Shown in pieces: positions 3,176 through 53,779 of a DNA stretch of 64,000 bases (positions within the stretch are counted from its first letter, which is position 1; each line of letters opens with the position of its first letter). The notes below the pieces were generated by a model that worked only from the letters and a program-made list of their open reading frames with translations, was not told the origin of the DNA and ran no database searches. The position numbers and the translations under genes were made by a program. This DNA comes from an uncultured Gammaproteobacteria bacterium (lineage in GTDB: Bacteria > Pseudomonadota > Gammaproteobacteria > Xanthomonadales > Xanthomonadaceae): contig CAVVFI010000007.1 in NCBI GenBank assembly GCA_963747445.1, forward strand, positions 56,935 to 120,934, given 5' to 3'.

Positions 3176-4141
3176 TCAGATGCCGACCTGGCTGGTTGAC
3201 GTTGCGATGGCTGGCCAGCGGGCGCTGAACTCGAGGTCGAGGGTGCCGTTTCCTGACTGGGTTCCGCCCGTTTGCCCGGTCCCCGGTCCCCGGTCCCCGG
3301 TCGTTACCTGCTGCCGCAACAACAACACGTCGCGCCCGCGATCCAGCCGCGCCGCCGGCACCAGGTCGCCGACCAGGAAGGCACGGCTGTCGTCCGGCCG
3401 CAACGCCGTGATCCTTCCCACCGGGAACCCGGCAGGAAAGCGCCCGCCCAGCCCGGAGGTGATGATCTCGTCGCCAACACCGACATCGCCCGACAGCGGG
3501 ATATTGGCCAGAGACAACAGGTCGCTGCGTCCCTTGCCATAGGCGATCAGGCGCACGCCGTTGCGCGCGACCATCACCGGTACCGCATGGTCCGGATCTG
3601 TCAGCAGCAATACCGTGGCGGTACCCGGCTTGACCGAGGTGATCTGCCCCAGCAGTCCGCCGGCATCGATCACGCTCTGGCCCACCTGGACGCCGTCACG
3701 GCTCCCGGCATCGAGTACCAGCCGCTGCCGGGTCGGATCCAGGTCGATATCCAGGATCGGTGCCAGTTGCACGTCCAGTCCACCGCGGCTGGTCGCACCC
3801 AGCAAGCCGCGAAGGCGCGCGTTTTCCGACGCGGCCACCTGCAATCGCGAGAGCCGCGCGCCACTGATCAGCAATGCGTTGCGCAGCGCCTTGTTCTCGT
3901 CGGCCAGGCGTGCGCGGGTTGCAGTGCCTTCCCGCATGCCTTCGCCGATCCGGCCCGGCAGGCCTGCCAGCCACCACAGCGGCTGCACCACGAGCTCGCT
4001 GCGCGTGCGTACCTGCGCAAGCCAGCCTCCGCGATGGTCGAGCACGATCAGCGCGACGGCCAGCGCCAGGTAAGCCAGCAACCGCAAGGTGCCGGCGATG
4101 TCACCGGGACGGGGAGCGGAAGGGTGGGCGTAGGTGGGCAC
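3176..4141 (-). CDS. mreC: Rod shape-determining protein MreC
   Basis: N-terminal TM, coiled coil (ENARLRGLL) and SGLGGRFPAGFPVG motif; GTG start. Confidence 0.95.
   Translation of the reverse strand: MPTYAHPSAPRPGDIAGTLRLLAYLALAVALIVLDHRGGWLAQVRTRSELVVQPLWWLAGLPGRIGEGMREGTATRARLADENKALRNALLISGARLSRLQVAASENARLRGLLGATSRGGLDVQLAPILDIDLDPTRQRLVLDAGSRDGVQVGQSVIDAGGLLGQITSVKPGTATVLLLTDPDHAVPVMVARNGVRLIAYGKGRSDLLSLANIPLSGDVGVGDEIITSGLGGRFPAGFPVGRITALRPDDSRAFLVGDLVPAARLDRGRDVLLLRQQVTTGDRGPGTGQTGGTQSGNGTLDLEFSARWPAIATSTSQVGI
3275..3301. repeat. Heptamer tandem repeat (CCCCGGT)n inside the mreC 3' end
   Basis: cccggt ccccggt ccccggt ccccggt; reverse complement of 3144-3174. Confidence 0.9.
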
Positions 4142-4151
4142 GTCAGGAGCC

Positions 4152-4304
4152 GTGATTGGTGATTGGCGATTGGTGATTGGAAACGGCCAAAGCGTTCCGC
4201 GCCTGGTTGCCGTCCATGGGCCCGGCGACCGTCGGCAGCCGTTTGCATCGATGCGTCGAACGCAATTTACGAATCACGAATCACCAATCACGCATCACCA
4301 ATCA
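4152..4304. repeat. Inverted pair of heptamer arrays, (GTGATTG)4 at 4152-4180 and (CCAATCA/CGAATCA)5 at 4270-4304, in the mreB-mreC spacer
   Basis: Read directly from the sequence. Confidence 0.9.
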
Positions 4305-4309
4305 AGGCA

Positions 4310-5587
<1,278 letters not shown>

Positions 5588-50852: not shown

Positions 50853-50891
50853 CAATCCTGGCCGGCAATCCTGGCCGGCAATCCTGGTCGG
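50853..50891. repeat. 13-bp tandem repeat CAATCCTGGCCGG x3
   Basis: Read directly, between the tRNA 3' end and the SDR start. Confidence 0.85.
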
Positions 50892-50950: not shown

Positions 50951-51272
50951 TGGTGGGCCCACCAGGACTCGAACCTGGAACCAAGGGATTCGCATGTCCC
51001 GGGGGTTTCCCTCCGGTGCGGACTATCTCTTCACCCTTCGACGATGCGGATGGGGTGCGGGACGCTCGAGCCTGTGATCAAGGGCACTGCAGCCCTCAGG
51101 TAGTCTCTGCACCTTCCGGCGGTGTACCGCCGGCTTGGCTCAGGGTTGCCACCGCCCGCGCCAGGCGCGTCGCTGAGGTTTCCCTGAATTCATCCCGATC
51201 CCGTCCGTGCATTCCGGCACGGCGGCACCTTCTCGATGAGTCCCCTGCTCTAACCAATTGAGCTATGGGCCC
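50951..51272 (-). tRNA. ileX: tRNA-Ile2 (anticodon CAU), intron-split; exons 51272-51236 and 50990-50951
   Basis: Joined exons GGGCCCATAGCTCAATTGGTTAGAGCAGGGGACTCAT|AATCCCTTGGTTCCAGGTTCGAGTCCTGGTGGGCCCACCA fold into a 77-nt cloverleaf with encoded CCA; resembles E. coli ileX; located downstream of rpoD. Confidence 0.95.
50991..51235 (-). ncRNA. Group I self-splicing intron (IC3-like core), 245 nt
   Basis: IGS GUG pairs with exon CAU (U-G wobble); P3 GGGAUG/CGUCCC; P/Q AAUUCAGGGAAAC and GGCAACCCUGAGCCAAG; R GAAGGUGCAGAGACUA; S AAGAGAUAGUCC; GAAA-capped P9; terminal G. Confidence 0.95.
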
Positions 51273-51341
51273 GTGAAACGATCTTACCCAATCCCCGCCG
51301 CCTTGCAGCAGTTGCACAACAATCCGGATTATCCTTATTTG

Positions 51342-51761
51342 ATGAAATCCGATCTACGCTGCGTGGGTTGCGCACGACCACTGTCCGGCCGGCAGCGGCG
51401 GTTCTGTTCGCTGGCATGCAAGAACCGGGATACCAACCACCGACACCAGAGCTATGCGAGCCAGCAGGCCCGGGGCCTGCGGCGGAAAATGCAGCTGATC
51501 GAGGAGGCCGGTGGCTGCTGCAGCCAGTGCGGTTACAGGCGCAACATCGCCGCCCTCAGCTGGCACCACCGGGACCTGGCCGGCAAGGCCTTCAACATCG
51601 ACGTGCGCGCCATCTCCAATCGCAGCGAGTGCGAGGTCAGGTCCGAGATCTCGAAGTGCACGCTGCTTTGTGCCAACTGCCACGCCGAAGCGCACCACCC
51701 GCACCTGTCGATCCCCACGCCGGTACGCAGAAACGACAACGGCCGCAAGCGCGACCGTTGA
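51342..51761 (+). CDS. Free-standing HNH endonuclease with N-terminal Zn finger
   Basis: CVGC...CSLAC; GGCCSQCGY...LSWHH...LLCANCHAEAH; 139 aa from ATG 51342, no obvious SD. Confidence 0.88.
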   Translation: MKSDLRCVGCARPLSGRQRRFCSLACKNRDTNHRHQSYASQQARGLRRKMQLIEEAGGCCSQCGYRRNIAALSWHHRDLAGKAFNIDVRAISNRSECEVRSEISKCTLLCANCHAEAHHPHLSIPTPVRRNDNGRKRDR

Positions 51762-51800: not shown

Positions 51801-53699
<1,899 letters not shown>

Positions 53700-53730
53700 C
53701 AGGCGTGTCACCGGGTTGGAATGGTAAGGA

Positions 53731-53779
53731 GTTGGCACCAGGAACGGTGCCGGTAACGCGTTGGCACCAGGAACGGTGC
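53731..53779. repeat. 20-bp direct repeat GTTGGCACCAGGAACGGTGC x2 upstream of rpoD
   Basis: Copies at 53731-53750 and 53760-53779, each with a GCACC-N6-GGTGC palindrome. Confidence 0.88.

Follow-up and report, generated by a model that had tools for sequence, protein, structure and literature searches.

A free-standing HNH nuclease gene beside an intron-split tRNA-Ile2 (CAU) gene: a candidate collaborative homing pair on bacterial chromosomes

Introduction

Collaborative homing, in which a nuclease and an intron act in trans, has been worked out in two phage systems, and is the leading model for how ribozymes that lack an open reading frame (ORF) and free-standing nucleases merged into mobile introns (PMC3984707). 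In cyanophages, the nuclease F-CphI and the psbA group I intron home collaboratively (Zeng, Bonocora & Shub 2009, as related in PMC3984707). In phage T4, homing in trans involves MobE and the nrdB intron with its defunct I-TevIII (PMC2790892). Here, we describe a candidate counterpart on a bacterial chromosome. The DNA in question is a stretch of 64,000 nucleotides (“the window”) from an uncultured gammaproteobacterium of the Xanthomonadaceae (GenBank assembly GCA_963747445.1, contig CAVVFI010000007.1, positions 56,935 to 120,934). In it, a free-standing gene for a putative HNH nuclease lies between rpoD and a tRNA-Ile2 (CAU) gene of the ileX type, and the tRNA gene is split by a group I intron that lacks an ORF. 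The concept of trans homing by a nuclease and an intron is already known from phages; what would be new is the chromosomal ileX pair. Neither a chromosomal HNH gene with an ileX intron as its partner nor a tRNA intron that contains a member of this HNH family was found described in the open-access literature, in agreement with the original prediction, made from the letters of the window, which knew of no such partnership for a bacterial chromosomal tRNA.

How does the locus compare with the described systems? It resembles F-CphI and psbA in where the enzyme is proposed to act, at the site of the intronless allele into which the intron inserts, and in that the intron would protect its own allele and co-convert with the nuclease. 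F-CphI differs in being a phage enzyme whose target, during co-infection, is a protein-coding gene, and it does not belong to the HNH family of the window protein. The pair in the window belongs to bacterial chromosomes and to a single-copy, essential tRNA gene, is conserved across many genera, and involves a cleavage that we infer. MobE is similar in that a free-standing HNH-family endonuclease mobilises both itself and a neighbouring intron without a working nuclease; however, its target lies in nrdB, the intron moves by co-conversion of flanks rather than through insertion-site immunity, and the setting is again a phage and a protein-coding gene. Nucleases also accompany phage tRNA genes. 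For example, the tRNA cluster of phage Felix O1 contains HNH ORFs 44, 45 and 47 (PMC3185647), and T4 SegB, a GIY-YIG enzyme, drives the preferential inheritance of a tRNA region in experiments (PMC2330249). The Felix O1 ORF that matched our searches lies between tRNA genes and is related in sequence to the window protein (40% identical over residues 27–118). Unlike the window gene, the Felix O1 HNH genes and segB are phage genes beside intronless tRNAs with no immunity intron, and the fold of SegB is different.

Two further systems concern tRNA introns. I-Ssp6803I is encoded in the group I intron of the Synechocystis tRNA-fMet(CAU) gene and shows specificity for the CAU-tRNA gene’s anticodon region (Bonocora & Shub 2001, as cited in PMC3984707). 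It differs from the window nuclease in being intron-encoded, in sense orientation, and of the PD-(D/E)xK family rather than HNH, and in acting on the initiator tRNA. The Azoarcus tRNA-Ile intron represents an intron type that self-splices (PMC3984707). It shares its host gene type with the window intron, and both introns are small and ORF-less; the difference is that the Azoarcus intron is a model ribozyme in the open-access literature, where no partner nuclease is described for it. Our preferred explanation for the window locus, to which we assign a probability of roughly 0.55 on comparative sequence evidence, is that the HNH protein works as a free-standing homing endonuclease with uninterrupted ileX as its target, and that the intron gives immunity and co-converts with the nuclease gene.

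Co-occurrence of the nuclease gene and the intron

The original prediction placed an apparently intact Zn-finger/HNH gene 70 bp from the 5′ end of the tRNA gene, divergent from it and convergent with rpoD, and held the intron to be too short for such an ORF. Both points are borne out. The HNH gene is head-to-head with the tRNA gene across a gap of 69 bp and tail-to-tail with rpoD, and the intron, at 245 nt, contains no ORF of that size. Thus, as in known collaborative pairs, the nuclease is encoded outside the intron.

A scan of GTDB, with one genome per species, returned 503 relatives of the HNH protein, and the best 80 of these 503 were analysed as loci. An intron-bearing tRNA(CAU) gene is present at 76 of the 79 informative loci among these best 80; the remaining locus (L051) is uninformative because it is cut by a contig end. 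The layout of the window (rpoD, the HNH gene on the opposite strand, then tRNA(CAU) with an intron of 233–270 nt) is found at 62 gammaproteobacterial loci, in Lysobacterales, Steroidobacteraceae, Sulfurifustis/Sulfuricaulis, Woeseiaceae and others; this count includes L080, which is cut at a contig end. All 62 are intron-plus, and two of them have an additional intronless copy. The nuclease gene is therefore found only with intron-plus alleles at these loci, a count that is uncorrected for linkage and shared ancestry. Across the 62 loci, the distance from the tRNA gene to the ATG of the HNH gene is 47–74 bp in Lysobacterales-type loci and 100–138 bp in most of the others. Such a spacing, recurring over dozens of genomes, is not what chance placement would be expected to give.

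A different arrangement is found at 13 loci from Chloroflexota, Armatimonadota and Rhodothermales, where the HNH gene lies antisense inside a tRNA(CAU) intron of 575–636 nt. Here, the intron is between U33 and C34, and the HNH gene occupies the P1 loop, with the 5′ exon on one side of it and the ribozyme core on the other. The pairing of exon and guide in P1, across a loop of ~400 nt, is supported by a compensatory change: exon GGCU is matched with guide GGCUG, and exon GACU with guide GGUUG. One further locus (L064, Bacteroidota) has the HNH gene in sense orientation inside the intron, with a premature stop. In all, members of four other phyla, as well as phages, have a relative of the window protein within a group I intron of tRNA(CAU). 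Intron-encoded homing enzymes have their target at the intron insertion site. Together with the pattern of the exceptional loci described below, the intron-embedded relatives lend indirect support to the idea that the window enzyme, too, may target the insertion site.

The remaining three of the 79 loci depart from the rule in different ways. At L073, the HNH gene is beside an intronless tRNA(CAU) gene. At L065 (positions 3839–3960, minus strand; Armatimonadota), an intact HNH gene lies ~40–50 bp from the 5′ end of a tRNA(CAU)-like gene whose anticodon loop holds a 49-nt hairpin insert, far too short for a group I intron; the tRNA-like gene may be a deletion derivative of an intron or a non-functional tRNA. 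At L058 (positions 3200–4400), no intact tRNA gene accompanies the HNH relative. Two inverted fragments that resemble tRNA 3′ halves (T arm and acceptor) lie upstream of it, and a search with Rfam finds nothing.

Empty sites and intron-plus alleles without the nuclease

Does the association simply reflect a clade in which the intron is fixed? A sample anchored on RpoD comprised 12 loci from nine Lysobacteraceae genomes (Luteimonas, Cognatiluteimonas, Novilysobacter, Lysobacter and Thermomonas) with RpoD 80–84% identical to that of the window, and neither the intron nor the HNH gene was found at any of the 12. Fixation of the intron in the clade was rejected as an explanation on this basis. An intronless tRNA(CAU) gene follows rpoD at a distance of 85–290 bp in three of the 12 loci and lies 1.3–2 kb away in two others. 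In L286 (Novilysobacter spongiicola) and L291, the exons of the intronless gene are identical to those that surround the intron in HNH-plus genomes such as L009. Because these intronless alleles share their exons with HNH-plus alleles, natural “empty” homing sites appear to exist in the same bacterial family. The check proposed with the original prediction, whether the HNH gene occurs at the rpoD-ileX position only with intron-plus alleles, thus gave a clear outcome: 62 of 62 loci are intron-plus, and the 12 loci of the intronless sample are without the HNH gene. Intronless alleles may also occur alongside the window allele. The window sequence occurs only in DNA runs from soil and sediment metagenomes (runs of all kinds were searched, and no RNA runs were listed). 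In runs X2–X4, from the same or related samples, metagenome contigs that match window positions 50977–51236 join the T-arm side directly to position 51236. We read these contigs as intronless tRNA(CAU)-like genes of other organisms that co-occur with the intron-plus allele. The HNH part of the window is far less covered in these runs than the tRNA-intron part.

The reverse dependency is much weaker. The exon-intron junction pattern TAGAGCAGNGGACTCATC takes no account of the HNH gene, and a scan of metagenome contigs for it gave 120 intron-plus loci. Among the 97 with at least 600 bp upstream of the tRNA gene, 12 have the HNH gene and four others have decayed remnants; among the 44 that are linked to rpoD, eight have it. 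The rpoD stop codon is 55–200 bp from the tRNA 5′ end in most of the rpoD-linked loci that lack the HNH gene, and the two are ~510–610 bp apart where the HNH gene sits directly between them. HNH-minus and HNH-plus introns are interleaved: 17 of 65 HNH-minus introns have their closest relative among the HNH-plus ones. As far as these samples go, the dependency is one-way: the nuclease is nearly always with the intron, and the intron is usually without the nuclease. It follows that the intron does not need the HNH protein, given that 85 of the 97 intron-plus alleles lack it, and a maturase or splicing cofactor was rejected for the same reason. A one-way pattern is expected of a nuclease that needs an interrupted target for self-immunity; it is also expected of the invasion-and-decay cycle of a homing gene. 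Independent distribution of nuclease and intron would have spoken against the original prediction, and the two are not independent. That part of the prediction stands, with the qualification that the dependence runs in one direction only.

Exchange, selection and decay of the nuclease gene

The HNH gene has a history of its own. Mean identity of the HNH protein is 55% where RpoD is 55–65% identical, and rises to just 60–65% where RpoD is 96–98% identical. Estimates of synonymous divergence (dS) and of omega by NG86 give the same picture. Between the window and L010, HNH dS is 1.56 (omega 0.19), as compared with 0.22 for rpoD and ~0.4–0.6 for neighbouring genes; between L001 and L002, HNH dS is 2.97 (omega 0.09) and rpoD dS is 0.24; and between L031 and L038, HNH dS is saturated (proportion of synonymous differences 0.79), so that omega is not computable, with rpoD dS at 0.23. 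In two other pairs, HNH dS is close to the rpoD value of 0.12 (L017 and L021, omega 0.12; L004 and L039, omega 0.34). To judge from omega values of 0.09–0.19, the HNH gene is under purifying selection. Sliding windows place identity at 91–97% in rpoD, 51–75% in the HNH gene, 47–64% in the spacer and 80–94% in the tRNA-intron part, and the break falls exactly at the rpoD stop codon. The high or saturated HNH dS where RpoD is 96–98% identical, together with this sharp boundary, indicates that the HNH gene is a cassette that is replaced by exchange between lineages while under purifying selection. The closest genome relative, L010, illustrates the point: RpoD is 97% identical to that of the window, and the HNH protein is 60–66% identical. 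In L010, the stop codon of the HNH gene is also separated from that of rpoD by an additional ~400 bp (positions 4414–4831) that are absent from the window.

Is the cassette inherited together with the intron? Once RpoD identity is controlled for, HNH and intron identities still correlate (partial r = 0.40), which suggests, although a correlation does not prove, partial co-inheritance of the two. Signals of co-conversion are mixed: this correlation stands against a pair of loci that differ in the HNH gene alone, and against an intron core that keeps 80–93% identity where that of the HNH gene drops to 60–70%. The pair, L074 (HNH-plus) and L103 (HNH-minus), is a presence/absence polymorphism. The introns are 99.6% identical and the flanks 97–98% identical, and the difference is a clean indel of ~520 bp between the rpoD terminator hairpin and a point ~70 bp upstream of the tRNA gene; these ~70 bp are retained in both alleles.

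Decay of the gene is visible at several stages. In L161, the catalytic core is lost to an internal deletion; L114 has a scrambled fragment, and L173 and L170 retain remnants of 21–23 N-terminal residues. The HNH genes of L064, L039 and L057 are damaged.

Relatives in phages

Phages contain relatives as well. From the 375 relatives in IMG/VR, we analysed the best 79 distinct loci, and 226 GenBank phage records have a match to the family. Within the best 79 loci, tRNA genes lie within 3 kb of the HNH gene in 72, and the median distance to the nearest tRNA is 8 bp. The neighbour is preferentially tRNA(CAT): it is the nearest tRNA in 23 of the 52 loci with a neighbour within 150 bp, against a background of 11.5%, the share of tRNA(CAT) among all tRNAs in the phage loci (p = 3e-9). 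Some phage loci have the same geometries as cellular ones. L225 and L227 have the HNH gene antisense inside a tRNA(CAU) group I intron at the 33/34 site, and L204 has it convergent with an intron-bearing tRNA(CAU) gene. Hence, the family meets tRNA(CAU) in at least four geometries, which argues for target specificity over one inherited arrangement. In a rough neighbour-joining tree without bootstraps, the cellular HNH proteins nest, with weak support, inside a more diverse phage radiation. A protein of 120 aa resolves too little to order the free-standing and intron-embedded states.

Phage clusters with HNH relatives hold other split tRNA genes as well. ARAGORN calls Leu(UAA) in L218 (positions 3617–3909) and L253 (3632–3915), and SeC(UCA) in L258 (2630–2921); the introns of L218 and L258 are confirmed as group I by Rfam, and tRNA introns may be commoner in phages than annotated. 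In L201, a phage tRNA cluster includes a short match to the Rfam tmRNA model (positions 3805–3886, minus strand; 82 nt; 51 bits against a gathering score of 47), which is probably a tRNA-like element.

Proposed mechanism and alternative explanations

How might the pair work? The HNH enzyme would recognise the DNA of the uninterrupted ileX anticodon stem-loop and cut or nick it near the intron position. On the host chromosome, the 245-nt intron would split the target and make the host’s own allele immune, with the tRNA kept functional by self-splicing. Transformation, conjugation or transduction could bring an allele with both intron and HNH gene together with an intronless one; in repairing the break, the cell could then copy the intron, at the break, and the HNH cassette, ~105 bp away, with rpoD and the tRNA exons serving as homology. 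After the gain of the intron, the nuclease would no longer have a target and would decay or be deleted, leaving the ORF-less intron. The locus has the marks of a free-standing homing gene, with sporadic presence at one position (the L074/L103 pair, and the minority of rpoD-linked intron-plus loci that carry it) and with a history that is decoupled from the host and ends in decay (L161, L114, L173, L170, L057, L064 and L039).

Several points weigh against this mechanism. The cleavage site, the immunity conferred by the intron and co-conversion are steps that we infer. Linkage over 69 bp alone would keep the HNH gene and the intron associated without any functional dependence. Phage relatives and L073 adjoin intronless tRNA(CAU) genes, so that members of the family need not be lethal to a neighbouring uninterrupted tRNA gene. 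Homology past the tRNA 3′ end amounts to the 40-nt exon outside close relatives, since synteny breaks there. Expression of the HNH gene is a prediction, with no RNA runs listed among the matches and no consensus promoter in the spacer. Lastly, the L074/L103 pair indicates that the cassette was gained or lost on its own in an intron-plus background. If it was gained, the enzyme enters an intron-plus allele and its target lies outside the insertion site; if it was lost, the event fits the decay phase. Of the two, loss is the simpler reading because decayed HNH remnants occur elsewhere. The collaborative-homing unit of the original prediction therefore survives in part: co-occurrence, intronless alleles without the HNH gene and intron-embedded relatives speak for it, and the L074/L103 pair and the 69-bp linkage limit the claim.

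The most substantial alternative, which we regard as possible but distinctly less probable, is that the HNH gene homes independently of the intron. Its target would be an HNH-less rpoD-ileX spacer or a site in or near the tRNA gene, and the intron would be a linked passenger with no role in immunity, as for mobE and I-TevIII. An HNH indel on a near-identical intron-plus background (L074/L103) fits this explanation, as does a divergent block that is bounded by the rpoD stop codon and the spacer, with the intron core conserved; it also accommodates the phage relatives and L073 beside intronless tRNAs, and the 69-bp linkage accounts for the co-occurrence. It does not readily explain why no HNH gene at the 62 gammaproteobacterial loci has a sole intronless ileX as its neighbour when such alleles are common in the family of the host, or why relatives in several phyla and geometries lie inside tRNA(CAU) introns, which points to the anticodon-loop region as the target of the protein family. 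The decayed remnants favour loss in L103. Two tandem exceptions also bear on it. In L030 and L057 (positions 3380–4010 and 1300–1930, respectively; minus strand), the tRNA(CAU) copy that comes after the HNH gene bears the intron and has a break in its 3′ acceptor strand, and an intact intronless tRNA(CAU) gene lies ~130 nt beyond it. The HNH gene of L057 is degenerate, having lost the first CxxC and the N-terminus and acquired C113W, at a zinc ligand, and H118P; that of L030 looks intact, and there four bases in the anticodon stem of the intronless copy are changed relative to the intron-bearing exons. An inactive nuclease in one case and an altered anticodon stem in the other match the prediction of the immunity model, but a single lineage is an anecdote.

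Two other explanations are unlikely. The HNH protein could have been domesticated as a maturase-like splicing cofactor, a tRNA-processing factor or a regulator that is kept by host selection; purifying selection, a position conserved over many gammaproteobacterial orders and an N-terminal zinc ribbon that could bind nucleic acid would all fit. However, most intron-plus alleles do without the gene, introns of this type self-splice (PMC3984707), the putative metal and catalytic residues of a nuclease are invariant, and sporadic presence among near-identical strains, decay in place and saturated dS are signatures of a selfish element. Least probable of all is that the gene is an inactive relic, or an unrelated HNH gene whose place beside the tRNA is accidental. 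Insertions often fall at tRNA genes, synteny is lost at the 3′ end of the tRNA, HNH genes are frequent cargo of mobile DNA, and the Pfam and fold matches of the window protein are weak; yet the same gene occupies the same position, 47–138 bp from the tRNA, in 62 genomes, all 40 invariant residues are kept in the window protein, omega is well below 1, and phage relatives are enriched beside tRNA(CAU). What probability remains after these explanations falls to others, among them a restriction-like device for telling self from non-self, for which we see only a slim chance. The HNH enzyme would cut uninterrupted tRNA(CAU) genes on incoming DNA, and the intron would shield the essential ileX. Candidate targets are foreign ileX alleles and the tRNA clusters of large phages, which often include tRNA(CAU) and the same HNH family. 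If correct, such a device would explain an intact HNH gene under purifying selection across gammaproteobacterial lineages with RpoD only ~58–63% identical to that of the window.

What would collaborative homing at ileX mean? It would explain the sporadic scatter of the Azoarcus-type tRNA-Ile intron among proteobacteria despite its having no nuclease of its own. The HNH family offers hundreds of natural loci around one type of target, tRNA(CAU), that cover every proposed stage: free-standing beside an intronless tRNA gene (phages and L073), beside a split tRNA gene (62 genomes), embedded in the intron, and present as remnants or absent from ORF-less introns. One protein family and one type of target gene may thus show, in bacteria and phages, the entire route by which a free-standing nuclease is proposed to become part of a mobile intron. 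How mobile group I introns arise, and what life cycle they follow, becomes testable here, with cultured carriers in Rhodanobacter (R. spathiphylli B39, L001), Dyella (D. ginsengisoli, L004), Lysobacter (L. daejeonensis GH1-9, L006) and Thermomonas (T. brevis, P0085).

The HNH protein

The window protein is accepted as a putative HNH nuclease because of motif and profile evidence. An N-terminal treble-clef zinc ribbon (C7, C10, C22 and C26) is followed by an HNH domain of the form CxxC...HH...N...CxxCH...H. In an alignment of 17 diverse relatives, 40 columns are invariant, and all 40 residues are present in the window protein; they include the putative metal and catalytic residues C60/C63, H75-H76, N93, C110/N112/C113/H114 and H118. 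The ORF is intact and the HNH motif residues are retained in ~75 of the 80 cellular relatives. PHROGs HNH-endonuclease families match the window protein at E=5e-17 and 4e-16. The protein does not reach Pfam PF01844 and has no match in NCBIfam; PF01844 is matched by 15 of the 17 aligned relatives at E<=1 (best 5.5e-5, below the gathering score), and treble-clef zinc-ribbon models are touched by the N-terminal part of 11 of the 17. An AlphaFold2 model (pLDDT 84) has strands at residues 73–76 and 106–109, then a helix at 111–118. With Foldseek, HNH nucleases make up nearly all of the best matches (among them Cap5, Gme HNH nickase, T4 endonuclease VII and the Cas9 HNH domain), at non-significant scores (E>=0.2), and a sequence search of the PDB gave only the “nicking endonuclease” 9qgx (E=0.14). 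The anti-phage defence families of PADLOC gave no match to the window protein at E<=0.1.

Annotation hides the pair. The public gene call for the contig (P0010) gives only a 90-aa product, from an internal start within 51342–51761, and relatives are annotated as “hypothetical protein”, “YacG/DUF329” or “Zn-ribbon protein”. The tRNA fares no better: default ARAGORN finds no tRNA in the whole 64-kb window, and reports one split tRNA, at 50951–51272 on the minus strand, once introns are allowed, with splice points that are 2 nt off. Mis-annotation is thus systematic for both halves of the pair, and the split ileX escapes default tRNA finders.

Features of the locus in the window

Coordinates are collected in Table 1. 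Splice sites were set from conserved exon and guide-sequence features. ARAGORN labels such tRNAs Arg, Gln, Ser or others. The exon CAU can pair with a guide GUG 7 nt into the intron, with a U.G pair at the 5′ splice site; the terminal intron G and the CAU/GUG pairing are kept in more than 60 relatives, and the junction ...GCG|AAUCCC is conserved across loci. Because of this conserved guide pairing and terminal G, the intron is placed after nucleotide 36, at the end of the CAU anticodon. We take the insertion point after the anticodon and the CAU/GUG exon/guide pairing to be the same as in the Azoarcus tRNA-Ile intron. The Rfam model RF00028 (group I intron) scores 54.4 bits on the window intron, against a gathering score of 50 (E=1e-12), and 50–102 bits on the introns of relatives. 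By analogy with introns of its type, the window intron probably keeps the tRNA functional by self-splicing. The spliced tRNA is 82–83% identical over 77 nt to E. coli genes annotated as tRNA-Ile, which justifies the label “ileX type”, as opposed to tRNA-Met, for a tRNA-Ile2 whose CAU anticodon would be read once modified with lysidine. The position downstream of rpoD is that of ileX in other gammaproteobacteria as well.

Table 1. Features of the rpoD-HNH-tRNA locus, in window coordinates
Feature	Position	Strand	Description	Basis
3′ exon of tRNA-Ile2 (CAU)	50951..50990	-	40 nt, AAUCCCUUGGUUCCAGGUUCGAGUCCUGGUGGGCCCACCA; CCA encoded; starts AAUCCC	ARAGORN -i; junctions compared over 60+ loci
ORF-less group I intron	50991..51235	-	245 nt; begins CGAGAAGGUG, ends ...CAUGCG (terminal G)	Rfam RF00028; conserved junction motifs
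5′ exon of tRNA-Ile2	51236..51272	-	37 nt, GGGCCCAUAGCUCAAUUGGUUAGAGCAGGGGACUCAU; 3′ end ...GGGGACUCAU	exon sequences
Divergent spacer between tRNA and HNH gene	51273..51341	.	69 bp; spacing conserved among Lysobacterales-type loci	
Free-standing HNH gene	51342..51761	+	139 aa; ATG at 51342, stop ends 51761; internal stops: 0	
Candidate rpoD terminator	51737..51760	-	GC-rich hairpin in last HNH codons, 3′ of rpoD stop	terminator-like scan
rpoD (sigma-70)	51801..53738	-	conserved anchor gene, same orientation as tRNA	

The short spacer is expected to hold both the tRNA promoter and the translation start signals of the HNH gene, with the placement of the promoter deduced rather than read off; a strict consensus scan of its 69 bp found no sigma-70 promoter. 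The hairpin at the other end of the HNH gene is a candidate rpoD terminator that may be shared by both convergent genes. The codons in which it lies encode a C-terminal tail, ..(D/I)(N/K)GR(K/M)Rx(R/L), that is common to the window, L001, L002, L005, L006 and P0002. On the far side of the tRNA gene, synteny between the window and L010 stops exactly at the tRNA 3′ end, which suggests that the tRNA is a boundary of recombination or integration. Between the tRNA 3′ end and the start of a short-chain dehydrogenase gene, positions 50853–50891 hold three tandem copies of the 13-mer CAATCCTGG(C/T)CGG.

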